A stretch of DNA of 64,000 nt from an uncultured Candidatus Rokubacteria bacterium (lineage in GTDB: Bacteria; Methylomirabilota; Methylomirabilia; Rokubacteriales; DASRDR01): positions 2,299 to 66,298 of the forward strand of contig CAWCVP010000009.1 of NCBI GenBank assembly GCA_963799055.1, read 5' to 3'. Positions 3,580-22,275 of this stretch are shown in pieces. The notes under the pieces were generated by a model, which worked only from the letters and a program-made list of their open reading frames with translations, was not told the origin of the DNA and made no database searches. The position numbers and the translations under genes are program-made. How positions within the stretch are numbered: the stretch's first letter is position 1; each line of letters opens with the position of its first letter.

Positions 3580-3607
3580 GCCGCGGGGTCGCAGCGGTTG
3601 CGCCACC

Positions 3608-3730
3608 GTGATGATGGGCGTGCTCGTCGTCATCGGCGGCCTCGGCCTCCTCTTCGAGCGGGTCATCTTCCAGACGCTCGAGGCCCGCTCGGTCGCGCGC
3701 TGGGGGATGCTCCGGGCCGTCAAGGCGTGA
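3608..3730 (+). pseudogene. remnant of the C-terminus of an ABC permease (SsuC/TauC-like)
   Basis: 40-codon ORF VMMGVLVVIGGLGLLFERVIFQTLEARSVARWGMLRAVKA resembles the last TM and tail of nitrate/sulfonate-type permeases. The upstream frame is not permease-like. Too short for the ORF track. Confidence 0.35.
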
Positions 3731-5240: not shown

Positions 5241-6754
5241 TGGGCCCCCTCGAGGGTCTCGCGTACGGCTTCTCCGTCGCGCTGATGCCGACCAACCTCG
5301 TGGCCTGCTTCGCGGGCGTCCTGGTCGGCACGATCGTCGGTATCCTGCCCGGCATCGGGCCGGTCGGAGCCATGGCATTACTGCTGCCGTCGACGTTCTC
5401 CCTCGAGCCGGCGACGGCCCTCATCATGCTGGCCGGCATCTACTATGGCTCGATGTACGGCGGCTCGACGACGGCGATCCTGGTCAACGTCCCCGGCGAG
5501 GCGGGGTCCGTCGTCACCGCCCTCGACGGCTATCAGATGACCAGGAACGGGCGGGCCGGGGCGGCCCTCGCGGTGGCGGCGGTGGGCTCGTTCGTCGCCG
5601 GCTCGCTCGGCGTCGTGGGCATCGCGGTGGCCGCCTCCTGGCTGGCCGACCAGGCGCTGCGCTTCGGTCCACCCGAGTACTTCGCCATGGCGGCGGCGGG
5701 GCTGCTCCTCCTTTCGCGCCTGTCGGGCGGGTCGGTGATACACGCCTTCCTCATGGTCGCGATCGGCCTGGCCCTGGGCACCGTCGGCATGGAGCCGATC
5801 TCGGCCGTGCGACGCTTCACGTTCGGCTCCACCCAGCTCTCCCAGGGGATCGAGCTGGTGCCGGTCATCATGGGGCTCTACGGCGTGGCCGAGGTGCTGC
5901 TGATCGCCGAGTCGGGTCTCAGGAAGGCCCACATCGCCGCGGTGCGGCTTCGCGAGCTGCTGCCAACGCGCGCCGAGTGGAAGCTGTCGGCGTTGCCGAT
6001 CGCGCGCGGCTCCGCGGTCGGGTTCCTCACGGGCCTCATCCCTGGCCCCGCCACCGTCCTGTCCACCTTCATCGCCTACAAGCTCGAGCGCAAGGTCTCG
6101 AAGCACCCCGAGCGGTTCGGTCATGGCGCCATCGAGGGCGTGGCCGGACCGGAGGCCGCCAACAACGGCGCCACCGCGGGCGCGATGGTGCCGCTCCTGT
6201 CGCTGGGCATTCCGTTCTCGCCGGCCACGGCCATTCTCCTCGGCGCCCTGATCATCACCGGCATCCAGCCAGGGCCCCTTCTGATCAGCCAGCGACCCGA
6301 GGTGTTCTGGGGGGTCGTGGCCAGCATGTACGTGGGCAACCTCATCCTGCTGGTCCTCAACCTGCCGCTCGTCGGGCTGTTCGTCAGCGTGCTGCGGCTT
6401 CCGCAGCACCTTCTGGCCACGCTGGTCTTGCTGCTCTGCCTGGTGGGCGCCTACAGCCTCAACAACAGCCAGCTCGACCTCTGGGTGCTCGTCGTCTTCG
6501 GGATCTTCGGCTACGGGCTCCGGAAGCTCGCCATCGATCCGTCCCCGCTCGTGGTCGCGCTCGTCCTGGGTCCGCTCATGGAGAAGACACTACGGCAGAC
6601 GCTCTTCATGGAGCGCGGTAACCTCCTCGCGATCCTCGGACGGCCCCTGACGCTGACCTTGCTCCTGCTGGGCGTGCTGGCCGTCACCGTACCCCCGCTC
6701 GTCCGGCTGCTGCGCCCGCGGCCGGTGGCCGCCTCCCTGGCGGCGGGGCCGTGA
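5240..6754 (+). CDS. tctA: TctA large permease subunit, set 1
   Basis: Last 504 aa of track ORF 4796..6754, from MGPLEGLAYGFSVALMPTNL. GILPGIGP, YYGSMYGGSTTAILVNVPGE and GVAGPEAANN motifs. Confidence 0.9.
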   Translation: MGPLEGLAYGFSVALMPTNLVACFAGVLVGTIVGILPGIGPVGAMALLLPSTFSLEPATALIMLAGIYYGSMYGGSTTAILVNVPGEAGSVVTALDGYQMTRNGRAGAALAVAAVGSFVAGSLGVVGIAVAASWLADQALRFGPPEYFAMAAAGLLLLSRLSGGSVIHAFLMVAIGLALGTVGMEPISAVRRFTFGSTQLSQGIELVPVIMGLYGVAEVLLIAESGLRKAHIAAVRLRELLPTRAEWKLSALPIARGSAVGFLTGLIPGPATVLSTFIAYKLERKVSKHPERFGHGAIEGVAGPEAANNGATAGAMVPLLSLGIPFSPATAILLGALIITGIQPGPLLISQRPEVFWGVVASMYVGNLILLVLNLPLVGLFVSVLRLPQHLLATLVLLLCLVGAYSLNNSQLDLWVLVVFGIFGYGLRKLAIDPSPLVVALVLGPLMEKTLRQTLFMERGNLLAILGRPLTLTLLLLGVLAVTVPPLVRLLRPRPVAASLAAGP

Positions 6755-8217: not shown

Positions 8218-9747
8218 ATGCTCGAGACCTTCCAGAACCTCCACCTGGGATTCTCGGTCGCCCTGAGCCCGGGCGTCCTGCTCTACGCGTTCGTCGGGTG
8301 CGTGGTCGGGACGCTGGTCGGGGTGCTGCCCGGGATCGGCCCGCTCGCGGGCATCAGCCTCTTGCTGCCCGCGACGTTCGGGCTGGACGCGACGCGGGCC
8401 GTCGTGATGCTGGCGGGGATCTACTACGGCGCCATGTACGGCGGCTCGACGACGGCGATTCTCATGCGGATCCCCGGAGAGGCCGCCTCGGTGATGACCT
8501 GCATCGACGGCTACGCGATGGCGCAGAAGGGCCGGGCCGGCGCGGCGCTGGCGATCGCCGCCGTCGGCTCGTACGTCGCGGGGACGGCCAGCGTGGTCGC
8601 GCTGATGTTCCTCGCGCCGCCTCTCGCGGCGGTCGCGCTCAGCTTCGGCCCGCCGGAGTACTTCGCCCTCCTCCTGCTGGGGCTCCTCGTCCTCGCCTAC
8701 CTGGGATCGGGCTCGATGCTGAAGTCGCTGGCGATGGCGGCCCTGGGCCTCCTGCTCGGGATGGTCGGCATCGATCAGATGAGCGGGTACTTTCGCTTCA
8801 ACTACGGCGTCGTGGAGCTGGGCGACGGCCTGGGCGTCGTCCCGGTGGCCGTGGGACTGTTCGGCCTCGCCGAGGTCCTCGCGACCGCGGGTCGGCTGAC
8901 GCCGCCCGCCGTGATCCGGCCTCGATTGCGGGAGCTGCTGCCGACGCGCCAGGAGTGGCGGGCGTCGACCGCGCCGATCGGGCGCGGGACGGTGCTCGGG
9001 TTCCTCATCGGCATCCTGCCGGGGTCGGCCCACATCGTGTCGAGCTTCGTCTCGTATGCGCTCGAGCGGCGGCTGTCGAGGCAGCCCGGGGAGTTCGGCA
9101 AGGGCGCGGTGGCGGGCGTGGCGGGCCCCGAGGCGGCCAACAACGCGGCGGCCTCGGGCGCCTTCGCGCCGATGCTGGCGCTGGGCGTGCCGTCGGGCCC
9201 GATTCCGGCCGTGATGCTCGCCGCACTGATGGTCCACGGCGTGACACCGGGGCCGCTCCTGATCCAGAACCGGCCGGACCTCTTCTGGGGATTCATCGCG
9301 TCGATGTACGTGGGCAACGTGGTGCTCCTGATCCTCAACCTGCCGCTCGTCGGCCTGTTCGTGAACCTGCTCCGGGTGCCCTATTCGTACCTGTATCCGG
9401 CGATCCTGATGTTCGCGGTCGTCGGAGTCTATGCAGTGAACGGCAGCGTCGTGGACGTCTGGATCATGCTCGGGATGGGGGCGCTCGGCTACGTGCTGCG
9501 CAAGCTCGACCTCGAGCCCGCGCCGATCGTGATGGGGGTCGTTCTGGCTCCGCTGATCGAGTTCAGCTTCCGTCAGTCGCTCGCGATGTCGGACGGGGCG
9601 TACGCGATCTTCGTGACTCGCCCGATCGCGGCGACCCTGCTCGGGGCGGGACTCGTGCTGCTCTCGCTGAACGTCCGTTCGTTCATCCTGCGTGCCGTCG
9701 ACTGGCGCGCTCGGCTCGCGCTCGTCGCCAAGGGAGACCGGATATGA
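8218..9747 (+). CDS. tctA: TctA large permease subunit, set 2
   Basis: In-frame ATG inside track ORF 7825..9747: MLETFQNLHLGFSVALSPGVLLYAFVGCVVGTLVGVLPGIGP... 509 aa. Confidence 0.9.
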   Translation: MLETFQNLHLGFSVALSPGVLLYAFVGCVVGTLVGVLPGIGPLAGISLLLPATFGLDATRAVVMLAGIYYGAMYGGSTTAILMRIPGEAASVMTCIDGYAMAQKGRAGAALAIAAVGSYVAGTASVVALMFLAPPLAAVALSFGPPEYFALLLLGLLVLAYLGSGSMLKSLAMAALGLLLGMVGIDQMSGYFRFNYGVVELGDGLGVVPVAVGLFGLAEVLATAGRLTPPAVIRPRLRELLPTRQEWRASTAPIGRGTVLGFLIGILPGSAHIVSSFVSYALERRLSRQPGEFGKGAVAGVAGPEAANNAAASGAFAPMLALGVPSGPIPAVMLAALMVHGVTPGPLLIQNRPDLFWGFIASMYVGNVVLLILNLPLVGLFVNLLRVPYSYLYPAILMFAVVGVYAVNGSVVDVWIMLGMGALGYVLRKLDLEPAPIVMGVVLAPLIEFSFRQSLAMSDGAYAIFVTRPIAATLLGAGLVLLSLNVRSFILRAVDWRARLALVAKGDRI

Positions 9748-10771: not shown

Positions 10772-11989
10772 CTACAGGCGCGAGCTCCAGGATGTACAGG
10801 CCGCCGGTGAAGCGGTCCACGGTGTAGACGACGCCGCGCTCGTCGACGAAGACGTCGTTCAGCTGGGCCGCGCCGCGCGGTGAGCCGCGCGGCGGCGGCG
10901 GGACGTAGTGGGCGACTTCCCGAGGGCGGAACGGGTCGGAGAGGTCGAAGGCGCGGACGCCGCCGTTGAAGAACGTGCCGACCACGAGCGTCTCCGAGAT
11001 CCAGGATCCCGGCGCCGGCCGGTTCTCGTGGAGGTTGTGGGCCCCATAGCGGCCGCCGCGCCCCGCGAAGTCGGCGACGGGGGGGAGCGGGACAGGTGCT
11101 GATCGGGACCAGGTTCGCCTCGTCGCGGGCGTCCAGGACCCACACGAGCTTGGGCCAGTCGGCCCCGCCGTCCGCCGTGGACTCGTCGGAGACCACGAGC
11201 AGCTCCCGGTCGAAGAGCGGCAGGAGCGTGTGGGTGAAGCCCGGGAAAGGGCGGATGGTAGTCCCACCGGCTGACCAGCCGCGGACGCGCCATGTCGGAG
11301 ATGTCGAGGATGATCGCGCCGCCGTCGATGTATCCGACGTAGGCGCGGTCGGGCCGCCGGGGATAGACGTTCGTGTTGTGGGCGCGGAAGCCCATGTCGA
11401 ACCTGGGGTGTCGCGTCGGCGGGGGCTCCGCGTCGCCGTCCCGGGTGCCGGGCAGCCACCATCGGCCCACCTCGTGAGGGCGGCTGGGGTTTCGGACGTC
11501 GACGATCCGGTAGCACTGGTCGTCCTTCGGGTTGCGCGGGACGAAATCGGCCGCGCCGCCGCTCAGGTGGACGTAGCTGCCGTCCACGAACCAGAGGTGG
11601 TGGACGCCACGGGAGGCCGGCCCGGAGGCGTCGAACGTCGCCACCGACCGCGGGCGGGCCGGGTCGGCCACGTCGAAGATCTCGAACCCGGCCGGCTGCA
11701 TCCCGGGCCGGCTCGTCTGGTAGGCCACCACGAGGAGATCGCCGACCAGATCGAGCGAGTTGGAGCGCATCTCGCGGTGCGGCAGGTCGGTCTGGAGGAC
11801 GATCGTGGGCTTCCGCGGATCCGTGACGTCGACGGCCGTCACGTTCTTCGGGGGCGACTCGTGGGCGAGCCACAGGATGCGCCGGCCGTCCCGCGCCATC
11901 TGGATGGCCATGCCCTCGCCGCAGTTGCCGAAGCCGTTCAGGTCGTCGTGAGCCAGGAGCGGCATGCTGCGCGAGGATTCGGTCGTCAT
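10772..11989 (-). CDS. LVIVD-repeat beta-propeller protein, with about 3 frame breaks
   Basis: Track ORF 10859..11989 begins MTTESSRSMPLLAHDDLNGFG with repeated xxDVxDP units (AVDVTDP, FEIFDVADP, IVDVRNP, ILDISD). Continuity jumps frames at about 11243 (CCCGGG) and about 11082 (7-C run). It probably jumps again at about 10778 to reach the stop at 10772. Confidence 0.65.
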
Positions 11990-12042
11990 GGTCTCCCGAT
12001 TCTAGCTCGGGGTCGGACCGCGCATACCGGCCGCCCCGGGCG

Positions 12043-13016
12043 CTAGGTGTCGAGCAGGGACTCGCAGAACAGCTCCCTCGGCGTGAGAGCGGCGCGACGC
12101 CAGCCCCTGGCGGAACGAGTACCCCGCCAGCGTCTCCACGGCTCTTCCGGGTCCGGGCGACGCCGTAGGGAAAGGGGTCGTCGCCCATCAGCGCCCGGGT
12201 CTCCTCCACCTCCGCCACGAGCCACGGCAGGACGTAGGGCAGCACCGCCGTGTCCGAGAGGCGCTGGTAGGCCAGGCGCTTGGCCTCGACGAACGCCTCG
12301 TAGAGGGCGAGCGGCAGCCACGGGTGCTGCTGCGCCAGCTCCTCCTTGAGGACGACCGTGTGCATGACCGGGAAGATCCCGGTCTTCTCGTAGTAGGCGC
12401 GCTCCACGCGGCGGAACTCGGGGAACAGCCGGCGCACGGGCGCGACGCCTCCCGCGCCCCCGGGCCGGCGGGCGCCGATGAAGACATCGAGCTCGCCCGC
12501 GCGCAGCATGTGGCCGAGCGTGCGGTCGCCGGGGACCACCTCGTGCCGGAGCCCGGCCGGCAGCGTCACGTCGACCTCCTTCACCGCCGCGCCCTCGCCC
12601 CCCTCGAACCAGTGGAGGTCGCCCGGCGCGACGCCGTACTCGTCCTCCAGGATGCCGCGGACCCACACCGCCGCCGTCATGTGGTACTTCGGCACGCCCA
12701 CGCGCTTGCCGACCAGGTCCCGGGGCTCCTGGATCCCCGCGCCCTCGCGCACCCAGATCGCCGAGTGCCGGAACGCGAACGACGGGAACACCGGGATGGC
12801 GACCAGGGGCTCGCCGCGCGCGCGCAGGATGGTGTAGGTGGACAGGGAGAGCTCCGCGACGTCGAAGTCGCGGAGGCGCGCCATGCGGTAGAACATCTCC
12901 TCGGGCTCGAGGGGGAGGACCCGGAGCTCCACGCCGCGCGGCTTCACGGCGCCGGTCCGGAGCGGGAGGGTGCGGTCGTAGTCGCCGCAGGCGAGCGTGA
13001 GCGTCAGCGCGGTCAT
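12043..13016 (-). CDS. PhtD-like (4,5-dihydroxyphthalate decarboxylase family) protein, with two frame breaks near the 3-prime end
   Basis: N-terminus of track ORF 10509..13016: MTALTLTLACGDYDRTLPLRTGAVKPRGVELRVLPLEPEEMFYRMARLRDFDVAELSLSTY. The tail is recovered as ...VETLAGYSFRQGLASRR / LTPRELFCESLLDT via shifts at about 12141 and about 12088. Confidence 0.75.
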
Positions 13017-13051
13017 GGTCGGGTTGACGGTTCCCGGCTTCGTAACCTAGC

Positions 13052-15139
13052 ATGCCTCCCGGGTCGGCGAAACCCGCAGAGCGCCGGACCCGGACGCGCG
13101 GCCGCCACCGCCAAGCTCGGGGAGCACCGCCGATCGCCGACTTCCTCCACGCCGCGCTGACCGGGCTGGTCCAGGTCTTCACGTGGCCCTCGTTCGGCCT
13201 CATGCTGATCGGGGTCGCCATCGGGTTCGTCGTCGGGCTCCTGCCCGGCCTCGGCGGGCCGACCACGCTCGCCCTCATGCTGCCGTTCGTCCTCAAGATG
13301 ACGCCGGTGGAGGCGTTCGCGTTCCTCCTCGGCATGCTGGCGGTCACGCACACGACCGGCGACATCACGTCGATCCTGTTCGGCATCCCCGGCGAGCCGA
13401 CCTCCGCCGCGACGATCGTGGACGGCCACGCCATGGCCAAGCGAGGGGAGGCCGGCCGGGCCCTGGGGGCGGCGATGATGAGCTCGCTCATCGGCGCCAT
13501 CTTCGGCGCGCTGGTCCTCGGGCTGGCCATTCCCGTCGTGCGCCCGCTGGTGCTCGCGCTCGGGTCTCCCGAGTTCTTCATGCTGGCGGTGCTCGGGATC
13601 ACCTTCGTCGCCGCCCTGAGCGGCCAGGCGCTCCTGCCGGGGCTGGTGGCCGGCGGCCTCGGCCTGTGGCTGGCCACCATCGGGATGGATCCCATCTCCG
13701 GGACCCAGCGGTACACGTTCGGCCAGCTCTTCCTCTGGGACGGCATCGGGCTCGTCCCGGTCACGATCGGCTTCTACGCGATTCCCGAGCTCGTGGACCT
13801 GGCCGTCAGGCGCTCGAGCATCGCGCCGCTCGACGTGAGTCGCGTCGGCGGCGTGGGGCAGGGGGTCCGGGACACCTTCCGGCACTGGTTTCTCGTGCTT
13901 CGCTGTAGCGCCGTCGGCACGTTCGTGTCGGTCATCCCGGGCCTCGGGGCCGCCACCACCCAGTGGGTGGCCTATGCCCATGCGGTCCAGAGCTCGCCCG
14001 ACCGGGAACGCTTCGGGAAGGGCGCGGTGGAGGGGGTCCTCGGCCCGGGCGCCGCCAACAACTCGTCGCTCGGGGGGAGCCTCGTCACCACGGTGGCGTT
14101 CGGCGTGCCCGCCAGCGTGAGCACGGCCATCCTCATGGGCGCCTTCTTCATCCAGGGACTGGTCCCCGGGCCCGCGATGCTGGCCCCGGCCCCGCGGGGT
14201 CACCTGGCCGTGACGCTGGCGATGGTGTGGACGATCGTGGTGTCGAACGTGATCGCGGTGGCGGCGTGTCTGGCCTTCATGGGCCGCCTGGCTCGCATCA
14301 CGCAGGTCCGCGGCACGCTCCTGGTTCCCCTCATCCTGACCCTCGTCTGGGTCGGCGCCTTCGCGGAGAAGAACGTCATCCAGGACCTCGGCATCGTGCT
14401 GGTCTTCGGCGTCCTCGGCCTCTGCATGGCGCGCCTCGACTGGCCGCGGCCCCCGCTCCTCCTGGGGCTCGTCCTCGGGCCGCTGGCGGAGAACCGGCTG
14501 TTCCTGTCGACGGACAACTACGGCCTGGCTTGGCTTCTCCGGCCGGGCGTGCTGCTGCTGCTCGGCCTCGTCGCGGTCGGCCTCATGGTGCCGATTCTGA
14601 GGAGCCGCGGCCGCCGCCAGGTCCCGCCGGCGCTCGGAGGCGAGGGCGAGCCACCGCGCGGCCTTCGTTTCGACGGTCGAGCGCTGTTCAGCCTGGCGAT
14701 CGTGGGCGTGCTGCTCTGGGCGCTCTGGCAGAGCCGAGGGTTCGCGGTGCGCGCCGGGCTCTTCCCGTGGGCGGTGATCGCCCCGACGCTCGGTCTCGCC
14801 ATCGTCCAGCTCGCCCGCGATCTCGGCGGGAGACGGCCGGCCGGCGACGCCGACGCTCACGAGCCCGGCCTCGGCGTGTCGCCGGCCGAGAATGCGCGCC
14901 GGACCGCGGAGATCGCCGCGTGGATCGTGGGCATGCTGGGGGCGATCTGGCTGGTCGGCTTCCCGATCGCCACGCTCCTGACGACGTTCCTCTACCTCAG
15001 GCTCGGCGCCCGCGAGGGGTGGACGATCAGCGTGGCGCTCAGTCTCGGCGGGTTCGTGTTCGTCCACGGGCTCTTCGCGCGCCTGCTCGGGGTGCCGTTC
15101 CCGCCGGGGCGGTTGTTCGAATGGCTCGGCTACGGCTAG
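13052..15139 (+). CDS. fused TctA-TctB permease (TTT set 3)
   Basis: Track ORF 695 aa in one frame. A TctA-like body (GLLPGLGGPTT, GDITSILFGIPGEP, GVLGPGAANN) is followed by a linker and a TctB-like tail (GRALFSLAIVGVLLWAL...LLGVPFPPGRLFEWLGYG). Start uncertain: the paralog's start aligns near 13142, where there is no canonical start codon. Confidence 0.8.
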   Translation: MPPGSAKPAERRTRTRGRHRQARGAPPIADFLHAALTGLVQVFTWPSFGLMLIGVAIGFVVGLLPGLGGPTTLALMLPFVLKMTPVEAFAFLLGMLAVTHTTGDITSILFGIPGEPTSAATIVDGHAMAKRGEAGRALGAAMMSSLIGAIFGALVLGLAIPVVRPLVLALGSPEFFMLAVLGITFVAALSGQALLPGLVAGGLGLWLATIGMDPISGTQRYTFGQLFLWDGIGLVPVTIGFYAIPELVDLAVRRSSIAPLDVSRVGGVGQGVRDTFRHWFLVLRCSAVGTFVSVIPGLGAATTQWVAYAHAVQSSPDRERFGKGAVEGVLGPGAANNSSLGGSLVTTVAFGVPASVSTAILMGAFFIQGLVPGPAMLAPAPRGHLAVTLAMVWTIVVSNVIAVAACLAFMGRLARITQVRGTLLVPLILTLVWVGAFAEKNVIQDLGIVLVFGVLGLCMARLDWPRPPLLLGLVLGPLAENRLFLSTDNYGLAWLLRPGVLLLLGLVAVGLMVPILRSRGRRQVPPALGGEGEPPRGLRFDGRALFSLAIVGVLLWALWQSRGFAVRAGLFPWAVIAPTLGLAIVQLARDLGGRRPAGDADAHEPGLGVSPAENARRTAEIAAWIVGMLGAIWLVGFPIATLLTTFLYLRLGAREGWTISVALSLGGFVFVHGLFARLLGVPFPPGRLFEWLGYG

Positions 15140-15173
15140 CCTTGCACGAAGACCCACGGAGGAGCTGATCGCC

Positions 15174-15896
15174 ATGAACCTCGAGGCGGCGCTGAGCGAC
15201 CTGGTCATCGCCAATCGCATTCTCGCCAACGAAGGCGTGATCGACGCCTTCGGTCACGTGAGCCTCCGGAACCCGGCGCGGCCGGATCACTACTTCCTGG
15301 CCCGCTCGCGGAGCCCGGAGCTGGTGGAGCGCGGGGATCTGATGGAGTTCGACCTCGACAACCGGCCCGTCGATCCCCGGGACCGGACGATGTACTCGGA
15401 GCGGCCCATCCACGGATCCATCTACCGGGCGCGTCCGGACGTCGCGTCGGTGTGCCACAACCACGCCCGCTCGCTCGTCCCGTTCAGCGTCACCGGGATC
15501 CCGATCCGGCCGATCTGGCACATCGCCGGCTCGATCGGCGCCGAGGTCCCGATCTGGGACGTCCGCGACGAGTTCGGCGACACCGACCTCCTCGTGACCA
15601 CGGCGGCGCTGGGCGATTCCCTGGCCCGGAAGCTCGGGCCGAACCGCGCGTGCCTGATGCGGGGTCACGGCGCCGTCGTCGCGACCCACGACCTGAAGGC
15701 CACCGTGTTCGTCTCGATCTACCTCATGATCAACGCCGCCCTCGTGAAGGAAGCGCGCGAGCTGGGCGAGGTGACCTACCTGAGCGAGGGGGAGATCCGC
15801 CTCACGGAGCAGATGAACTTCCGGGCGCGGTCCCAGAACCGGGCCTGGGAGTACTGGGCCCGCCGCGCCGGCTTCACGACCACGGTCAACGACTGA
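15174..15896 (+). CDS. class II aldolase/adducin-family protein
   Basis: Track ORF 240 aa with GGAGGAG SD. GHVSLRNP, HGSIYRARPDVASVCHNH and MRGHGAVV motifs. Confidence 0.85.
   Translation: MNLEAALSDLVIANRILANEGVIDAFGHVSLRNPARPDHYFLARSRSPELVERGDLMEFDLDNRPVDPRDRTMYSERPIHGSIYRARPDVASVCHNHARSLVPFSVTGIPIRPIWHIAGSIGAEVPIWDVRDEFGDTDLLVTTAALGDSLARKLGPNRACLMRGHGAVVATHDLKATVFVSIYLMINAALVKEARELGEVTYLSEGEIRLTEQMNFRARSQNRAWEYWARRAGFTTTVND
15849..15896. repeat. direct repeat copy A (3-prime end of the aldolase gene)
   Basis: GAGTACTGGGCCCGCCGCGCCGGCTTCACGACCACGGTCAACGACTGA matches 16646..16693 at 43 of 48 positions. Confidence 0.85.
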
Positions 15897-16041
15897 CGCC
15901 GACGCGAGGCGGCAGCGCCGAGGCCAGCCCTTGGTGCGGGTAACGCCCGCGGTCACCGGCCGGGGCGAACAACGCGAGTCCCGGTCCGGTGCACTGCGGA
16001 GTTCGACCCACGGCCGCCACCGTAGGGTGCGAGTTCCTCTC

Positions 16042-16284
16042 TCACCACCTGCCGGACACGTCGAGGGTCGAGCGCCGGTGGACGTACTCCAGTAGGGCCT
16101 CGTTTATCAGAGTCTGGTAGTTGCCGCCGCCGGCCTTCTCTACCACCCCGCGAAAGTAACCGAGGACTGCGTTGTCCAGGCGGATGGAGATCTTGGTCTT
16201 CCCGGGTTCGGGTCGGACGGCTGGCCCCCGTTTCGCGCCCGAGAAGTCGATGTCGCGATATCTCTCAGCTGCGGCCTTTTTCAT
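16042..16284 (-). CDS. brnA: BrnA-family antitoxin
   Basis: Internal ATG of track ORF 16042..16386: MKKAAAERYRDIDFSGAKRGPAVRPEPGKTKISIRLDNAVLGYFRGVVEKAGGGNYQTLINEALLEYV. The ATG overlaps the 3-prime end of brnT. Confidence 0.75.
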   Translation of the reverse strand: MKKAAAERYRDIDFSGAKRGPAVRPEPGKTKISIRLDNAVLGYFRGVVEKAGGGNYQTLINEALLEYVHRRSTLDVSGRW

Positions 16285-16544
16285 AGAGCACCCTCTGGCG
16301 CTTGTTCGCCTTCCAGGCAGAGACCACTCGAATCGTGTCAGGCTCTCGATACCCGTACACGACGACCAGCAGGTTCCCAACATCACTCAGCCCCAAGGTC
16401 ACGAACCTCGGCTCGTCAGGCGCCGTGGTCTTCCCGAGTCAGCGGGTAAGTCTCGCCAAAGGAATCTGGCGCCTCCTGCAAGGCTCGCAGGCGAAGCTCT
16501 CGGTGGAGGCACACCTCCCGTGGCTCCAACCTTCGAAGGTGCAT
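16265..16544 (-). pseudogene. brnT: BrnT-like (DUF497) toxin, frame-broken near 16418, with an atypical N-terminus
   Basis: C-terminal frame: DEPRFVTLGLSDVGNLLVVVYGYREPDTIRVVSAWKANKRQRVLYEKGRS. An upstream 42-codon ORF from ATG 16544 ends ...YPLTREDHGA one frame away. The usual FEWD..K..N..KHG start is not recognisable. Confidence 0.5.
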
Positions 16545-16573
16545 TGGGACCCTTGGCTAGGATTGGTGGAATC

Positions 16574-16592
16574 TGTTTCAGCCCGCGAAACA
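16574..16592. promoter_or_regulatory. inverted repeat TGTTTC-N7-GAAACA upstream of brnT (possible TA operator)
   Basis: Perfect 6-bp arms, 30-50 nt upstream of the brnT ATG. Confidence 0.3.
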
Positions 16593-16645
16593 CAGCATGA
16601 CCCGGCCACCTATCCCGCCGCGGTTGAGTCGAGGCGGGGCGAGCC

Positions 16646-16693
16646 GAGTACTTGGCCGGCTGCACCGGCTTCACGACCACGGTCAGCGACTGA
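16646..16693. repeat. direct repeat copy B (orphan duplicate of the aldolase 3-prime end)
   Basis: GAGTACTTGGCCGGCTGCACCGGCTTCACGACCACGGTCAGCGACTGA would encode EYLAGCTGFTTTVSD-stop, versus EYWARRAGFTTTVND-stop in copy A. Confidence 0.85.
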
Positions 16694-16726
16694 GTTCCGC
16701 GGAGCGGTCCGCCGGGTCGGGCGACC

Positions 16727-18232
16727 TCAGGCGCGCGAGGGGACGACGTACCCGTAGCGCAGGTTGCTGCGGGAGCCGCCGCCCCGCTGGTACTCCTCCT
16801 TCAGCCGGGCGATGCGGTCGGTGGCGAGGGCGGCGCGCGGCTTCTGCTCGTACTTGTAGATCCGCGCGTTGTTCCCGCCGAAGATCGCCGTCTTGACGCG
16901 GCCGTCGGCCGGCCCGAGGGGCTGGAAGCCGTACTTCTTCTGCATGTCCTCCGGGATCTTGAGCCGCCGCAGCGCCTCGATCTGCCACTGGGGCGAGCCG
17001 GTCCAGATGGCGTCGGTGCCCCACACGACGTGGTCGGCGCCGAGCCCCCGGATGAGCTGGCCCAGCATCGCCGCACAGACGCGCGGGTCGGCCACGGTGG
17101 ACTGGGCGAAGATCTGGCCGAGGTCGGCGTAGACGTTGGAGACCCCGAACTTCGCCGGGATCTCGGCGAAGTCGGTCACCCACTCGATGCGCCCGGTCTT
17201 CTCGAACTGGTCCCAGGCGTCCTCCACCTTCCCGCCGCCCGCGAAGCGGTACGCCGAGTGATAGATGACGAAGTTGAGCTGTGGCCAGTCCTTGGCCGCC
17301 TTGCCGACGTCCCGCACGTCCGAGTAGGCCAGGAGGTGCGGGAACTGCTGCTCGACCGACGGCGGGAAGAGCCCCTTGTGGACGCAGACGTTGACGAGCC
17401 CCGCCTTCTGGAACTTCTCGTAGCCCTTGTAGGCGACCTTCTCGTCGTCCATGCGCCAGGGGTACTTGCCGGTGGCCTTGTTGGTGTTGTCGCCGATCGT
17501 GTAGCCCTTGAACGAGTCGGGTTTGAGGTCGGCGATCACCCGGTCGATCGACTCGAGCCACCCCGGCTGCCCCGGGGTGAAGATGGCGTGGCTCAGCATC
17601 CGCCGCGAGCCGGCGTCCTTGTTCACCCGCGCCCGCGCCTCCGCCTTCATCTCGTTGGTGAGGAACCAGTCCTGCGGGACGTCCGAGGGAGAGCCGGAGA
17701 TCAGCGCCACCTTGGTGTCGCTGTCGAGGAAGATCTCCTTGTAGTAGTTCGCGAACTTGAGGTCCTCGATCGTCTGGTCCTTGCCGACCAGGGCGGGGTT
17801 CCAGCCGGCCTTGCCCACCGCCTGACGCTGCCGCACGAACGTCATGATCTTGGTGTCGTCGCGCAGGAAGTGGGTGTGGCAGTCCATGATGAACTGCTGG
17901 GCGAGCGACTGCGCGCGCTCGACCGCCATCTCGGGCGTCGCGGCCTCGGCGGGGCTCACGGCGTAGAGCGAGCCGTAGACCTCGTTCATCGCGAGGAAGG
18001 CGGCCGCCATGCCGGAGGCGCTGGCGAGGAACTGCCGCCGCGTCAGCCCCTGCTTCCGCGCGAGCTCGCCGCCGAGCTCCTTGATGCGCGCCTCGAGCCG
18101 GCGCTGCTTCTTGGTCTGGGGCGCGGGCATGAACTCGTCGCTGGACACGCTCTGGGTCGGGACCGGCCCCGGGAACGCCGCGGTCTCGGCCGGTTCCAGC
18201 GCCCGGAGCTCGGCATCACTGAGCAGTCTCAT
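16727..18232 (-). CDS. amidohydrolase-family protein with a twin-arginine (Tat) motif
   Basis: Track ORF 16727..18280. Preferred start is MRLLSDAEL (AAGAGGAG SD upstream). LTRRQFLASASGMAAAFLA Tat motif, then DCHTHF..., GTDAIW. An alternative start at 18130 (MPAPQTKK) is possible. Confidence 0.85.
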   Translation of the reverse strand: MRLLSDAELRALEPAETAAFPGPVPTQSVSSDEFMPAPQTKKQRRLEARIKELGGELARKQGLTRRQFLASASGMAAAFLAMNEVYGSLYAVSPAEAATPEMAVERAQSLAQQFIMDCHTHFLRDDTKIMTFVRQRQAVGKAGWNPALVGKDQTIEDLKFANYYKEIFLDSDTKVALISGSPSDVPQDWFLTNEMKAEARARVNKDAGSRRMLSHAIFTPGQPGWLESIDRVIADLKPDSFKGYTIGDNTNKATGKYPWRMDDEKVAYKGYEKFQKAGLVNVCVHKGLFPPSVEQQFPHLLAYSDVRDVGKAAKDWPQLNFVIYHSAYRFAGGGKVEDAWDQFEKTGRIEWVTDFAEIPAKFGVSNVYADLGQIFAQSTVADPRVCAAMLGQLIRGLGADHVVWGTDAIWTGSPQWQIEALRRLKIPEDMQKKYGFQPLGPADGRVKTAIFGGNNARIYKYEQKPRAALATDRIARLKEEYQRGGGSRSNLRYGYVVPSRA

Positions 18233-18283
18233 GGCGATCTCCTCTTTTCCCGCGGGGGACGGCGACGTCTGGGCGAGCACGGC

Positions 18284-19080
18284 TCATCTGCGTGGACCTA
18301 TCCAGTGGGGTGCCGGTGGATCGACTCTGCGCCGCCCTCGAATGGCTGTCAATCGTGTCCGCGGAGCCTCGATGCGCCACTCCCGGTAGTCGAGGCCGGC
18401 GGCCGCGAGCCTGGGCCTGAGCGCGGGGCGCGCGAGGTACGGCGATCAGGGCGCGGGCCGGCTCGGGCGCCGCGCTCCTGGCGGAGAGCCCGGCCGCGTA
18501 GGTGGTGACCTTCTGGAGCGCCGGGGGCAGGGGACCCACGAGCGTGACTCCCTCGACGGCGAGGATCTCGCTCATCTGGTGCACGACCAGCTCCGCCTGG
18601 CCCCGGACGACCGCCTCGGCGGCGGAGCCCCCGGGCCAGAGCACCGCCTTGTCGCTCACGGCGTCGGCGATCCCGAGGCGCCGGAGGACGCCGGCGAAGT
18701 GGATCCCGCTCGTCCCGCCGTGCGCCGGGTCGATGTACGCGATCGAGGAGGCCCGCAGGAGGGTGTCACGCAGGGCCTCGGCGCTCGAGATGTCGGGCAG
18801 GGGCGCCCCACGCCTGACGCCCACGCCGACGGCCGTGCGGGCCAGGTCGACGCGGCTGCCCGGCCTCGACGATCCCGCGTCCCGTCAGCTCGTCGATGGC
18901 GACGTCGGTCAGGACGAGGACGTCCACCGGCGCGCCCGCGGCGGCCTGCTCCTTCAGCGCGCCCACGGTGCCGACCGTCAGATCGACGGCGCAGCCGGTC
19001 TCGCGGTGGAACGTCGCGGCGACCTCGGCGACGATCCGCCGCATCACGCCAGCGCTCAGCACCTGGAGCGAGGTCGTCAC
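18284..19080 (-). CDS. ModA-like periplasmic-binding-fold protein (SBP_bac_11-like) without a signal peptide, with two frame breaks
   Basis: GTG 19080 after GGGAGGG: VTTSLQVLSAGVMRRIVAEVAATFHRETGCAVDL...DVLVLTDVAIDELTGRGIVEAG / SRVDLARTAVGVGVRRGAPLPDISSAEAL...(track ORF 18216..18824) / YLARPALRPRLAAAGLDY. Shifts at about 18860 (GCCGGGC) and about 18441. Confidence 0.6.
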
Positions 19081-19203
19081 GTCATGCCCTCCCGTGCCGT
19101 CAGGGGTCACCGCTAGGGGGGCGCCGATCCGTCGTCAAGCCGCTCCGGCGGCGGCCGTCTCCCGCGAGCGCGTTTCCGTGTAGACTGGCCCGGGCGCGCA
19201 AAG

Positions 19204-20721
19204 ATGCTCGACGCCTTCGTCGACGGGCTCGTCCTGGTCCTCCAGTGGAAGGCCTTCAGCCTCATGCTCGTCGGCATGGGGACCGGGTTCGTGGTCGGGC
19301 TCCTGCCCGGCATCGGCGGCGCCGCCAGCCTCGCCCTGATGCTCCCGTTCGTGTTCACCATGACGCCGGTGGAGGCGTTCGCCTTCCTCCTCGGCATGCA
19401 CTCGGTGGCGGCGACCACCGGGGACATCACCTCCATCCTGTTCGGCGTGCCGGGGGAGGGGCTCTCGGCGGCCACGGTCGTCGACGGCCACCCCATGGCC
19501 AAGCGCGGGGAGGCGGGCCGGGCGCTCGGCGCCGCCCTCATGAGCTCGCTGCTGGGCGCCCTCATCGGGGCGGCGACCCTCGCCGTCTCCGTCCCGATCG
19601 TCCGTCCGCTCGTGCTGACGTTCGGGTCTCCCGAGCTGTTCATGGTCTCGGTCGTGGGCCTCGCCTGCATCACCTCGCTCAGCGGGCTGGGGGTGCGAGG
19701 CCAGCTCCGGGGCTGCGCGATGGGGCTCCTCGGCCTCCTCCTCTCGACGATCGGGCAGGAGCGGCAGTCGGGAGCCCTCCGGTTCGACATGGGCCTCACC
19801 ACCCTCTGGGACGGCCTCGACCTCATCCCGGTCCTGGTCGGGATCTTCGCGATCCCGGAGCTGGTCGACCTGGCGGTGCGCAGGACCACGATCGCGGGGG
19901 ATCGACCCCCGGAGGCGCTTCGGGCCGGCGTCCTGGAGGGCGTCAAGGACACCTTCCGCCACTTCTGGCTGGTCGCGCGCTGCTCGGCGATCGGCGTCTT
20001 CGTCGGGATCCTCCCCGGCGCCGGCGGCGGCGTCGCCCAGTGGATGGCGTACGCCCACGCCGTCCAGAGCGCCCGCGACGCGAAGGAGCGGCAGGGCTTC
20101 GGCAAGGGGGACATCCGGGGTGTCCTCGGGCCCGGCGCCGCGAACAACTCGAAGGAGGGCGGCGACCTCATCCCGACCATCGCCTTCGGGGTCCCCGGCA
20201 GCGGGGCCATGGCGATCCTCCTCGGCGCCTTCATGATCATGGGGCTGGTCCCGGGACCGGACATGCTGACCAAGCACCTCGCGGTCACCTTCTCCATGGT
20301 GTGGACCCTGGTGATCGCGAACATCATCACGGTGCTGCTGTGCCTCCTCGTCCTGAACCACCTGGCGAAGGTGACGCAGATCCGGGGCGGGCTGATCATC
20401 CCCTTCGTGCTGCTCCTGGTCTTCGTGGGGAGCTACACCGCCAACGGCCAGTTCACGGACCTGATCATCACCGTGGTCTTCGGCGTCCTCGGCTACTTCA
20501 TGGTCCGCTTCGGCTGGCCCCGACCGCCGCTGGTGCTGGGCTTCGTGCTGGGGCGCCTCGCCGAGACGTACCTCTTCATCTCGGTGGCGCGCTACGGCAT
20601 GGCGTGGCTCGGCCGCCCGATCGTCGCCTTCCTGATCGTTCTCACGGTGTTCGTCCTCGTCTACCCGTTCCTCCAGGAGCGGCGCCAGGGCCGCGCCAGG
20701 GCGGTGGCGAGTGCGGCCTAG
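19204..20721 (+). CDS. TctA-like large permease (TTT set 4), paralog of 13052..15139
   Basis: Track ORF 505 aa: MLDAFVDGLVLVLQWKAFSLMLVGMGTGFVVGLLPGIGG..., GDITSILFGVPGEG, GVLGPGAANN. Confidence 0.85.
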   Translation: MLDAFVDGLVLVLQWKAFSLMLVGMGTGFVVGLLPGIGGAASLALMLPFVFTMTPVEAFAFLLGMHSVAATTGDITSILFGVPGEGLSAATVVDGHPMAKRGEAGRALGAALMSSLLGALIGAATLAVSVPIVRPLVLTFGSPELFMVSVVGLACITSLSGLGVRGQLRGCAMGLLGLLLSTIGQERQSGALRFDMGLTTLWDGLDLIPVLVGIFAIPELVDLAVRRTTIAGDRPPEALRAGVLEGVKDTFRHFWLVARCSAIGVFVGILPGAGGGVAQWMAYAHAVQSARDAKERQGFGKGDIRGVLGPGAANNSKEGGDLIPTIAFGVPGSGAMAILLGAFMIMGLVPGPDMLTKHLAVTFSMVWTLVIANIITVLLCLLVLNHLAKVTQIRGGLIIPFVLLLVFVGSYTANGQFTDLIITVVFGVLGYFMVRFGWPRPPLVLGFVLGRLAETYLFISVARYGMAWLGRPIVAFLIVLTVFVLVYPFLQERRQGRARAVASAA

Positions 20722-21191
20722 CGGACGCGCGCTCTTCAGCCTGTTCCTGGTCGCGGTGGGGGCGTTCGCCGTCGTGTCGGCGTGGCGCTGGCCCTTCAAG
20801 GCCGCCCTCTTCCCGCTGGCCGTCGGGATTCCGCTGGCCGTCGTGGCCGGGCGTGCAGCTCGTGCTCGACCTCCGGGGCCGGGGCGAGCCGGAGGCCGGG
20901 CCGGCGGTGGATCTCCAGTTCGGCGGCGACGTGCCGGACGACGTCGCTCGCCGGCGGGCGGGGACGCTCTTCGCCTGGATCGTGGGTTTCGTCGCGCTGG
21001 TGTGGCTGGTCGGCTTCCCGATCGCCGTCCCCGTCTTCATGGCGTCATACCTCTTGTTGCGGAGTGCGACGGACTGGCGGGTGGCCGCCGGCCTCACCGC
21101 CGCGGCGTGGGCGTTCTTCTACGGCGTGTTCCAGTGGGCGCTCCGGCTGCCGTTCGAGACGGGCTGGCTCCAGAGCCGGATGGGCTGGTGA
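20711..21191 (+). CDS. TctB-like small subunit (set 4), frame break near 20851; possibly fused to the preceding TctA
   Basis: RPSGRALFSLFLVAVGAFAVVSAWRWPFKAALFPLAVGIPLAVVAG, then one frame over VQLVLDLRGRGEPEAG...LFAWIVGFVALVWLVGFPIAVPVFMASYLLL...ETGWLQSRMGW (tail of track ORF 18579..21191). It aligns with the C-terminal domain of the fused paralog. Confidence 0.65.
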
Positions 21192-21215
21192 GAGTGTGAC
21201 CAAAGGAGGAAAGAG

Positions 21216-22226
21216 ATGACCCGCACGCGCATCGTCCTCGTCATGATGGCCATCGCGGCGCTCCTCGTGGCGCCGATGGCCCAGGCGCAGGCCCCGTTCT
21301 ACGAGGGCAAGACGGTCACGGTCGTGATCGGCGCCACCGGCGGCAGCCTGAACGTCGGCGCCCGGATCGTCGCCCGCCACCTGGGCAAGCACATTCCCGG
21401 CAACCCGACGGTGATCGTCCAGAACATGACGGGAGCCGCCCACCTCGTGGCGACGAACCACGTGTTCAACGTCGCGAAGCCGGACGGCCTGACCCTCCTG
21501 GCCGCCAACCCGAACGTGGGCATCGCCCAGCTGTCCAAGGTCGATGCCGTGCGCTTCGACGTCCGGAAGTTCGAGTGGCTCGGCTCGTCGGGCGCCGACG
21601 GCGTGGTGATGGGGATCCGCGCCGACCTGCCGTACAAGACCTTCGAGGAGATGCGGAAGGCCGACCGGGAGCTGGTGGTGGGCACGACCGGCCCGGGGTC
21701 GAACGCCCACGACTTCCCGCTTCTCCTCAAGGAGTTCGCCGGCGCCAAGTTCAAGTTCGTCTCCGGTTACCCGGCCAACGCCGACGTCCTCCTGGCCATC
21801 GAGCGCAAGGAGGTGGACGTGTGGGCCGCGTTCGCGTCGACGGTCCGACCCGCGGTGGAGCGCGGGGCGGTGCGACCCGTCGTGCGGAGCCGCGTGCCCG
21901 CTCCGGGCTTCGCGCAGCTGCCGGTCGACGAGGACCTGACCACCGACCCGATCGGGAAGGCGATCATGGGAATCCGCGCCGTGCCCCAGGCCATCGGGCG
22001 GGCGTTCGCGGCGCCGCCCGGCACCCCCGCCGACCGCGTGGCGATCCTCCGGGAGGCGCTCGCCAAGGCGTTGCGGGATCCGGAGCTGAAGGCCGAGGGC
22101 GACAAGGCCCAGATCGAGTTCCAGCTGATCTCGCACGAGGAGGTCGCCAAGGGCTTCGGCACCCTGCTGGAGCAGCGGCCGGAGGTGCTCAAGGAGATGG
22201 AGAAGTACATCAAGTTCGGTAGCTGA
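21216..22226 (+). CDS. Bug/TctC-like periplasmic substrate-binding protein
   Basis: Track ORF 336 aa, AAGGAGG SD, signal MTRTRIVLVMMAIAALLVAPMAQAQ. FYEGKTVTVVIG...HIPGNPTVIVQNM...AKPDGLTLL. Paralogous to 23174..24202. Confidence 0.8.
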   Translation: MTRTRIVLVMMAIAALLVAPMAQAQAPFYEGKTVTVVIGATGGSLNVGARIVARHLGKHIPGNPTVIVQNMTGAAHLVATNHVFNVAKPDGLTLLAANPNVGIAQLSKVDAVRFDVRKFEWLGSSGADGVVMGIRADLPYKTFEEMRKADRELVVGTTGPGSNAHDFPLLLKEFAGAKFKFVSGYPANADVLLAIERKEVDVWAAFASTVRPAVERGAVRPVVRSRVPAPGFAQLPVDEDLTTDPIGKAIMGIRAVPQAIGRAFAAPPGTPADRVAILREALAKALRDPELKAEGDKAQIEFQLISHEEVAKGFGTLLEQRPEVLKEMEKYIKFGS

Positions 22227-22275
22227 GGCGGTCGGCCGAGGCGCCGGACAGGGGAGCGACCCCGTCCTGCTCCGA

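Follow-up and report, generated by a model that had tools for sequence, protein, structure and literature searches.

A gene end displaced by incoming DNA has been described for the rhs orphan tips and for T6SS effectors of V. cholerae, where homology-facilitated illegitimate recombination was proposed (PMC5361080). In E. coli, e14 affects the metabolic gene icd, and recombination between the icd copies restores a single gene (PMC13626634). Here, we analyzed a 64-kb stretch of a soil Rokubacteria chromosome (hereafter the window) in which the last 48 nt of a class II aldolase gene recur downstream, behind the remains of a BrnT/BrnA toxin-antitoxin (TA) system. The remnant shares with the type II TA systems of this family (PF04365/PF14384) the order of toxin before antitoxin and the overlap of both genes, and the C-terminal part of BrnT is recognized; unlike in these systems, both genes are broken in the window, the native promoter is gone, and the BrnA of the cassette family found here carries a C-terminal tail of ~30 aa overlapping a DNA hairpin.

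The two repeat copies (A and B; Table 1) match at 43 of 48 positions in an ungapped alignment, confirming the direct repeat reported in a first-pass annotation of this DNA. They share the exact 21-mer CCGGCTTCACGACCACGGTCA, found at just these two sites of the 64 kb with up to three mismatches allowed (two occurrences observed versus zero expected; none in 100 shuffles). The repeat homology is limited by the stop codon on the right, exactly, and by GAGTAC on the left; proposed extensions beyond the 48 nt were not significant. Likewise non-significant, in comparison with dinucleotide shuffles (p 0.29-0.87), were a degenerate third copy of the aldolase end (15987-16045), a motif resembling the hairpin X to the left of copy B, and a derivation of X from the aldolase coding sequence. 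Copy A agrees with the conserved C-terminus of the aldolase, whose orthologs in Rokubacteria MAGs (84-90% on amino acid level) all end in ...WEYWARRAGFTTTVND. A codon-by-codon reading of the alignment revealed all five differences of copy B from copy A to be nonsynonymous. Copy B is orthologous to positions 9383-9428 of the related locus L003, with the derived substitutions G8T and C13G common to both loci and the later ones being lineage-specific; these shared derived changes indicate one duplication event. The ancestral copy B departs from copy A in the left arm only (positions 8 and 13) and agrees with it at all synonymous sites variable among orthologs. An assembly chimera was ruled out as the source of copy B, since L003 carries the same copy on a 4-Mb contig from another sample. 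Occupied alleles, i.e., those with copy B, amounted to two among the loci examined, the window and L003. Among 158 aldolase loci, the only aldolase-end duplicate besides L003 was a 274-nt repeat (98%) in L157, a distant lineage, with its second copy reaching the contig end. It was set aside as unrelated, a tandem duplication or an assembly artefact being the probable cause.

Table 1. Features of the aldolase-amidohydrolase region, given in window coordinates.
Feature	Position	Strand	Remarks
Class II aldolase/adducin-family gene, 240 aa, intact	15174..15896	+	PF00596, 88 bits
Copy A	15849..15896	+	Functional aldolase end: last 16 codons and stop; same 48 nt in sister L163
GC-rich 39-nt spacer, aldolase stop to cassette end	15897..15935		Common to L163 only (90%)
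brnTA cassette remnant, 3′ 509 nt of a ~650-nt unit	15936..16444	-	94.8% to L164, 90% to L165, 86% to L168
Imperfect hairpin X, overlapping the brnA 3′ end	15942..16003		Fold, z about -1.9
brnA pseudogene	15953..16284	-	PF14384; 1-nt deletion at 16058/59 cuts product to 80 aa
brnT 3′ two-thirds, codons ~34-92	16265..16444	-	2-nt deletion at 16418/19; end overlaps brnA start
5′ end of an unrelated gene (95 nt, codons 1-32), joined to truncated brnT	16450..16544	-	See L169/L170
101 nt without assigned origin, holding an inverted repeat	16545..16645		TGTTTC-N7-GAAACA at 16574-16592
Copy B	16646..16693	+	Putative displaced, decaying original aldolase 3′ end; 43/48 to copy A
Old aldolase-amidohydrolase intergenic spacer	16694..16726		Homologous to L003 without a break (92.9%), from copy B into amidohydrolase
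Amidohydrolase gene, convergent on aldolase	16727..18280	-	PF04909; adjoins aldolase directly in L002, L161

Empty sites were found in two relatives (L002 and L161), in which the aldolase stop is followed by 64 nt and the stop of the convergent amidohydrolase gene; a third relative (L162) has a spacer of 244 nt. All three carry one repeat copy, supporting the earlier proposal that an insertion displaced the aldolase 3′ end and supplied a working replacement. The outcomes named with that proposal as refuting it did not occur. The adjacency of both genes is also recorded on two further contigs, as judged from gene tables alone. The amidohydrolase of the window, for which an exact-sequence look-up gave no record, probably starts at 18232, resulting in a product of 501 aa. 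Alignments of the aldolase end with all relatives reach 15896-15906 and then diverge, leaving homology on one side. In all relatives without the amidohydrolase, homology to the window ends at most 5 nt away from the stop codon of the aldolase. Downstream, nearly all relatives differ, with remnants of a convergent gene for a PF04392 binding protein among the sequences there, and in most of them (L001, L151, L081, L004-7, L015, and L084) the aldolase runs directly into the region starting at 23172 in the window.

Identity matrices revealed different relationships on both sides of the junction. On the right flank, the window and L003 are sisters (TctA2 92.7% versus 86.6% to L002; amidohydrolase 93.9%). 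On the left flank, TctA of the window and L003 share just 81.0%, and the nearest more distant relative of the window is L001 (87.4%). The phylogenies of the flanks are discordant at the junction, and both sides have evidently had different histories. The sister locus L163 (96.7% identity to the window) shares the aldolase-brnA junction, with copy B and the amidohydrolase missing. It lacks the sequence corresponding to 16348-19142 but retains TctA2 onwards (19143-22252); this gap looks like a secondary deletion. In L003, the cargo in front of the displaced copy B consists of four other genes within an insert of 2.7 kb. A brnA 3′ remnant of ~50 nt abuts copy B there, represented by a homolog of hairpin X (L003 9329-9382, 80-84%) as the sole remainder of the cassette.

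The insert has a GC content of ~0.61 between the copies versus ~0.72 outside. Regarding its TA genes, the BrnA domain claimed in the first-pass annotation was recovered (PF14384, 39.3 bits versus a cut-off of 26.1); the break of its frame by the 1-nt deletion had been overlooked there. Homologs of BrnA comprise 110 aa, and repairing the deletion restores this length with 105 of 110 residues identical to P0135; the lost base is present in four other copies (L163, L164, L165, and L168). An assembly error is possible at this position, yet the window and L163 align without indels from 12143 to 15902, TctA and aldolase included. An exact-sequence look-up of the window BrnA returned no record. The frame break noted for brnT was verified, and the damage goes further: its first ~33 codons and native promoter are absent, with the fragment of an unrelated gene in their place, and the window lacks the upstream block CTGCACTTGAG...GACAATCGTCTATACACTC conserved in L163, L164, L165, and L168. 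The cassette-derived part matches PF04365 profile positions 38-76 of 77 only, with the 92-aa BrnT of L164 serving as the intact reference. Judged from its reading frames, the TA cargo is inactivated at this locus, with brnA frameshifted and brnT beheaded, and the term “decayed remnant” used for it before was right. The breaks in brnT differ between two sister genomes, suggesting that inactivation of such cargo is quick.

The fragment fused to brnT shares 90.5% nucleotide identity with L169 8001-8095 and is also found in L170; in both loci, the source gene belongs to an array of small genes, more than 20 in number and sharing one orientation. It has no Pfam match, leaving a guess at a GNAT N-terminus without Pfam support. 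Reading 16416-16544 as the true brnT N-terminus raised the Pfam score from 34.6 to 39.7 bits only, and it was rejected, with the DNA matching the L169/L170 gene and no intact cassette. The adjacent 101 nt were unmatched in all loci examined and elsewhere in the window. The inverted repeat TGTTTC-N7-GAAACA described before is present therein, but it lies upstream of the foreign fragment instead of in the brnTA promoter region of intact copies, and a chance origin of its 6-nt arms is, by our estimate, not unexpected.

Outside of this locus, the brnTA cassette is widespread. Copies with 95-96% identical BrnA occur in three unrelated contexts (L164; L165-167; L168), none of them beside an aldolase, with L175 providing a fourth context for a more diverged copy. 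Homologs number more than 3300, the best 120 being at least 84% identical. Searches of plasmids, phages, and viral contigs with the cassette gave no DNA match, and viral contigs contain BrnA relatives at 48-56% only. Five copies set the cassette end at 15936, 39 nt from copy A, and the truncation point at 16444 is located 200 nt from copy B. Apart from L163, no relative has a homolog of the 39-nt spacer downstream of its aldolase. The cassette limits, the other contexts, the states of L003 and L163, and the discordant flanks do not support the earlier view of the brnTA pair as the integrating unit that made the repeats. By the same comparisons, the duplication predates the present arrangement of the cargo and does not depend on it. 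Mobilization of a very small cassette in trans via the 48-nt repeats, considered at the same time, found no support. The reported lack of a recombinase was borne out for the insert and about 9 kb around it; reading the four ORFs of the L003 insert revealed none either. With respect to attachment sites, the 64-kb window contains no tRNA, and a tmRNA/Rfam scan gave sub-threshold Rfam matches only.

We tentatively regard the 48-nt pair as an old 3′-end displacement scar, caused by recombination anchored in the aldolase gene and containing decayed TA cargo, and grant this reading slightly less than an even chance. The mechanism and the order of events we infer are as follows. In the ancestor, the aldolase would have converged directly on the amidohydrolase, an arrangement kept in L002 and L161. 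Incoming DNA, consisting of a homologous aldolase 3′ end and non-homologous downstream sequence, would have recombined into the locus, with the aldolase as homologous anchor; at the far end, an illegitimate joint would have formed 48 nt ahead of the resident stop codon. This would correspond to homology-facilitated illegitimate recombination or, equivalently, to a Campbell-type single crossover of a circle with that homology. Copy A would represent the incoming end, keeping the aldolase functional, and copy B the resident last 48 nt, shifted downstream and subject to neutral decay. The brnTA genes may have been a passenger from an abundant cassette family instead of the agent, inactivated afterwards, and the L003 and L163 states could have arisen by later deletions or replacements at the same junction.

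Since homology among the relatives ends so close to the stop codon, the import of an aldolase gene would yield precisely a duplicate that terminates at the stop. The composition of the insert, a mosaic of truncated pieces without recombinase, also counts in favor of displacement, as do the single-copy empty sites, the copy B orthologous in L003, the discordant flanks, the cassette limits and other cassette contexts, and the variable downstream sequence. Against it stands that, to our knowledge, no natural transformability has been described for Rokubacteria. Homology-facilitated illegitimate recombination is rare at least in the experiments reported in PMC3240628. The donor arrangement was not found among the loci examined, which counts against a displacement scar, and the synonymous-site match between both copies is easier to reconcile with a very close donor, an event within the genome, or an attP mimic than with a diverged donor. 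Sliding-identity mapping of a crossover inside the aldolase gave no clear breakpoint. The flank discordance could alternatively be due to ordinary homologous recombination at a later time, with one end at the margin of the variable region.

The displacement scar has a serious, although in our view unlikely, rival in a decayed integrase-mediated island (e14/icd-icdC type). An attP mimicking the last 48 nt would have entered the aldolase 3′ end, and the integrase and most genes would have been deleted later, with brnTA and fragments remaining here and other cargo in L003. Foreign DNA between duplicated gene 3′ ends is the classical signature of such islands and counts against the displacement scar, and TA modules are typical island cargo. 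Direct repeats made of a gene 3′ end with an exact stop-codon limit and a 21-nt identical core, single-copy empty sites in relatives, and the lower GC content of the insert agree with an island, as do the left-arm differences of ancestral copy B, expected for a P arm. There is also the precedent of e14 located between icd and the icdC C-terminal pseudogene (PMC13626634). However, neither occupied allele nor the surrounding 9 kb or so contains a recombinase or phage/ICE gene, the single origin of the duplication gives no sign of site reuse, and the 39-nt spacer and the cassette limits are unlike element ends. The cassette is without plasmid or phage matches, and the flank discordance would require an extra event. 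Clearly less probable is the import of a block that began raggedly with copy B as the last 48 nt of a donor aldolase, continued with the amidohydrolase, an SBP gene, TctA2 and onwards, and was placed downstream of brnTA in a genome of the common “aldolase then TctC” type. This would be in line with the direct transition of most relatives from the aldolase into the 23172 region, with L001, one of these relatives, being nearest to the left block of the window, and with the gap in L163. Yet L163 keeps TctA2 onwards, so its gap resembles a secondary deletion; copy B and the brnA remnant shared with L003 imply a junction predating the window lineage; and the amidohydrolase adjoins the aldolase in L002, L161, L162, and the two gene-table contigs.

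The brnTA unit could finally be an integron-like, attC-bearing cassette inserted at a secondary site by a trans-acting integrase, the 48-nt repeat being a by-product of this traffic; we consider this highly improbable. What speaks for it is a sharply bounded unit of ~650 nt that recurs in many contexts with BrnA identities of 84-97%, and an imperfect hairpin over the brnA 3′ end with a few compensatory changes by eye. Further points are a second brnA 3′-end copy that directly precedes the cassette in L165 and, in part, in L163, a boundary between CG and TT in several copies, and the small-gene arrays around the source gene of the 95-nt fragment. On the other hand, the hairpin, though present in four of five intact cassette 3′ ends folded, reached z values of only -1.7 to -2.0, with z about 0 in three of seven stretches folded, and it is absent from the diverged cassette in L175. 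The boundary motif GTTCGCC differs from GTTRRRY, the L169 array showed no attC-like inverted repeats, an IntI gene was not seen near the locus, and integron insertion does not produce a 48-nt target duplication. Our literature search gave no publication on integrons in Rokubacteria. An equally small probability is given to the broader idea that the unit belongs to a family of small Rokubacteria cassettes mobilized site-specifically at the brnA 3′ hairpin by an integron-like or other recombinase. If a mobile cassette were involved, the aldolase-amidohydrolase junction would be a recurrent landing pad, and recombination, not deletion, would account for the brnA remnant in L003 and the extra hairpins in L165 and L163.

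Returning to the displacement scar as the preferred reading, the locus would be an ordinary recombination scar and not a new kind of mobile element. It would provide a clean natural case, from an uncultivated soil phylum, of a conserved gene end as recombination anchor with a short orphan copy left behind. For annotation, it cautions that a TA pair between repeats need not be a mobile unit. The near-identical brnTA cassette itself is abundant in soil metagenomes and is possibly worth a dedicated study.

In comparison with known systems, the cassette resembles integron TA cassettes in its small size, its own promoter, an imperfect palindrome at its end, and its occurrence in many contexts; unlike for those, intI, attI, canonical R′/R″ cores, and an attC family were not detected. 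With e14, the locus has in common that the 3′ end of a metabolic gene is hit, a replacement end is supplied, and a C-terminal pseudogene remains on the far side (PMC13626634). It differs in its insert of 0.75 kb without recombinase and with ordinary chromosomal or TA cargo, compared with an integrase-bearing element of about 15 kb. The displaced piece is part of a metabolic gene and just 48 nt long, no immunity gene selects for its retention, and the pair would be a neutral scar of inferred mechanism, unlike the functional arrays of rhs and T6SS loci. Common to these loci and, as proposed here, to the window is an incoming segment with anchor homology that brings its own 3′ end and new downstream DNA, a resident 3′ piece kept downstream as an orphan, the lack of a dedicated recombinase, and a mosaic that varies among close relatives.

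The class II aldolase gene ends in 48 nt (copy A) that recur after 749 nt as a displaced copy B, and this repeat is real rather than a chance match. The repeat of 43 identities noted in the first-pass annotation was confirmed and sharpened. The alignment is ungapped, and an exact 21-mer common to both copies (CCGGCTTCACGACCACGGTCA) occurs at these two sites only, even with three mismatches allowed (0 in 100 shuffles). The window belongs to a Rokubacteria (Methylomirabilota) chromosome with a GC content of ~0.72 compared with ~0.61 between the copies, and the nearest aldolase relatives (84-90% amino acid identity) are all Rokubacteria MAGs. Codon-by-codon reading of the window and its relatives by eye gave an inferred ancestral copy B differing from copy A at two sites, followed by three further changes in the window and, in the relative L003, by one change plus loss of the first two bases. 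All five differences of the window copy are nonsynonymous, and copy A encodes exactly the conserved ...EYWARRAGFTTTVND; copy B is a neutral relic, copy A is under selection. In a distant homolog (48% amino acid identity; contig L157), a segment of 274 nt that contains the 3' end of the aldolase (2628-2901) is repeated 791 nt downstream (3419-3692, 98% identical) with a truncated binding-protein gene in between; since the second copy reaches the contig end, the repeat is either an artefact of assembly or a tandem duplication.

Features of the aldolase junction and of related loci (window positions unless a locus is named)
Feature	Position	Strand	Remarks
Class II aldolase gene	15174-15896		PF00596
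Copy A	15849-15896		final 48 nt of aldolase gene
Spacer, 39 nt	15897-15935		common to L163 only
brnT-brnA cassette, 3' 509 nt	15936-16444		94.8% identical to intact L164 cassette
brnA	15953-16284	minus	PF14384 above cut-off
brnT, codons ~34-92 only	16265-16444		2-nt deletion at 16418/19
5' fragment of unrelated gene, 95 nt	16450-16544		90.5% identical to L169 8001-8095
Inverted repeat	16574-16592		inside 101-nt segment 16545-16645
Copy B	16646-16693		43/48 identities to copy A, ungapped
L163 sister allele of brnTA junction	5560-6400		ENA ERZ27257135 k141_2334607
L003 copy A	6676-6723		4-Mb contig
L003 copy B	9383-9428		adjoins amidohydrolase
L164 cassette			beside IS256-type transposase and HicB-like gene
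L165-167 cassette			after glyoxalase gene, near IS481-type transposase
L168 cassette			among esterase and racemase genes
L175 cassette, more diverged			between cupin and enoyl-CoA hydratase genes

The empty site predicted for relatives, with the aldolase followed directly by the amidohydrolase, was found in two genomes (L002 and L161), where 64 nt separate the two stop codons and the 48 nt are present once. A single copy also precedes a 244-nt spacer in L162, and one further contig has the same spacing of 65 nt according to its gene table. These single-copy sites, together with a repeat that holds on alignment, mark the window locus as an insertion. The earlier picture is supported in part: an insertion took place, the end of the gene was displaced and what remains is decayed. 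The second occupied allele, L003, shares with the window an unbroken 92.9% homology from copy B into the amidohydrolase as well as two derived changes in copy B (position 8 G>T, position 13 C>G), which shows that the B copies are orthologs going back to one event. Its cargo differs, comprising a PF04392-type binding protein, a luciferase-like oxidoreductase and a DUF433/DUF5615-like pair (ORFs read without a Pfam scan). A stretch of ~50 nt abutting its copy B is 84% identical to the cassette 3' end and represents a brnA remnant, so that brnTA lay between the copies already in the common ancestor of both alleles.

In most other relatives the aldolase is directly followed by the region starting at 23172 in the window, although some retain pieces of a convergent PF04392 gene between the two. 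The DNA 3' of the aldolase is thus a hotspot where sequence is gained, lost and replaced. Remnants of the PF04392 ABC substrate-binding gene converging on the aldolase were seen in L001 (6802-7658), L081 (931-1077) and L151 (392-538), and on the contig of P0122 the gene is intact between amidohydrolase and aldolase, which suggests an older aldolase/binding protein/amidohydrolase arrangement decayed differently by lineage. Beside the window's amidohydrolase, a SBP_bac_11 solute-binding gene (18219-19110, minus strand) is broken into a pair of overlapping ORFs, 18769-19110 covering profile positions 1-73 and 18219-18824 positions 84-219, and is probably another frameshifted pseudogene of this block.

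The sister contig L163 and five further copies of this TA module served as the references from which the anatomy of the insert was derived. Homologs of BrnA have 110 aa; the window brnA carries a 1-nt deletion at 16058/59, not found in four other copies, whose repair yields a 110-aa protein with 105/110 residues identical to the homolog P0135. The brnT gene, described earlier as frame-broken, indeed is, and its 5' third is also replaced: the promoter block and the first ~33 codons are missing, their place being occupied by the 95-nt foreign fragment. Given these lesions, both TA genes are pseudogenes. The following 101 nt have no match in the loci compared or elsewhere in the window, and the inverted repeat, although present, lies within this segment and therefore is not the brnTA operator. 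L163 is 96.7% identical to the window over 10912-16347 and shares the aldolase/spacer/brnA junction; its brnA is intact (110 aa) and its brnT differs by an internal deletion of 83 nt and an insertion of 1 nt, both specific to L163, so that the toxin was broken independently in two sister lineages. Window positions 16348-19142 (copy B, amidohydrolase, binding-protein gene) are absent from it. The cassette frameshifts are probably real, with an assembly error as a possible alternative, because 12143-15902, including TctA and the aldolase, is free of indels between both sequences. Six single-nucleotide indels fall into ~1 kb at 11092-12143 and none into the next 3.7 kb; the LVIVD-repeat gene contains at least two of them, and another two lie where the neighboring gene of L163 maps. 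They are either local frameshifts or errors in the sequence of one assembly.

BrnA has more than 3300 homologs, the best 120 of which are 84-97% identical and mostly on short contigs; the family, extremely abundant in soil metagenomes, has a C-terminal tail of ~30 aa past the RHH domain. Cassettes with 95-96% identical BrnA occur in three unrelated contexts, none beside an aldolase. The conserved unit, extending from about ...GCGTTCGCCCCACGGGC-AGCACTTGAG... upstream of brnT to ~10-20 nt beyond the brnA stop, neither contains nor is bounded by the 48-nt repeat, and the cassette DNA matched no plasmid or phage and only distant relatives among viral contigs. The TA pair is cargo, and the proposal that it was mobilized with the repeats as its ends does not hold.

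The flanks of the junction have different histories. To the right, window and L003 are sisters (TctA2 92.7% identical, compared with 86.6% and 87.2% to L002; amidohydrolase 93.9%). To the left, their TctA genes are 81.0% identical, no closer than any other pair, and the nearest relative of the window beyond L163 is L001 (87.4%), a genome without the amidohydrolase; L002 and L161 are ~90% identical on both sides. This discordance marks the junction as a recombination breakpoint; within the aldolase itself, scanning at higher resolution gave no clear crossover.

Since the insertion lies 48 nt before the stop and the aldolase gene is nevertheless complete, its own end must have come in with the inserted DNA. 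We tentatively favor, as the leading but far from assured explanation, recombination anchored in the aldolase gene, by which a homologous aldolase end would have been imported together with foreign downstream DNA, either by homology-facilitated illegitimate recombination or by a Campbell-type crossover of a circle with the homology. This choice rests on the discordant flanks, on a homology with relatives that stops at the stop codon anyway, on the single origin of the duplication and on both occupied alleles being mosaics of ordinary genes and fragments; moreover, the reported lack of a recombinase was confirmed, as neither recombinase nor phage genes lie in or near either allele. A site-specific element with an attP resembling the aldolase end, as in the precedent of e14 in icd/icdC (PMC13626634), is the less likely runner-up: the anatomy is a classical att signature, and the ancestral copies show no synonymous difference, contrary to what one would expect of a diverged donor. 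Import of a block on the right-hand side, leaving a ragged edge, seems improbable.

Least probable of all is integron-like cassette traffic, suggested by a hairpin overlapping the brnA 3' end, an extra hairpin copy that precedes the cassette in L165 and, in part, in L163, and a foreign fragment whose source is a gene type found in arrays of small genes sharing one orientation (L169, L170). However, hairpin z-scores reach -1.7 to -2.0 at best, L175 has no hairpin, attC-like repeats were absent from L169, and neither an intI nor literature on integrons in Rokubacteria was found. The second hairpin sequence (L165 1988-2063, also in L166 and L167; partly L163 5673-5715) lies in L165 directly upstream of the brnT promoter, after the glyoxalase gene, so that this cassette has its own 3' end directly repeated on either side; the upstream copy may represent a recombination site or what is left of a tandem cassette after truncation. 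The arrays (L169 1-12518, L170 1-6231; GC ~0.62) hold more than 20 small co-oriented genes of unrelated functions, e.g., glyoxalase, DUF1801, GrpB and methyltransferases, many without a Pfam match, and look like cassette arrays, yet no attC-like repeats were found.

The logic of the preferred explanation, recombination anchored in a gene end, has also been proposed for rhs tips and T6SS effector-immunity arrays (PMC5361080). In kind, the locus is a scar of a known type in an organism new for it.
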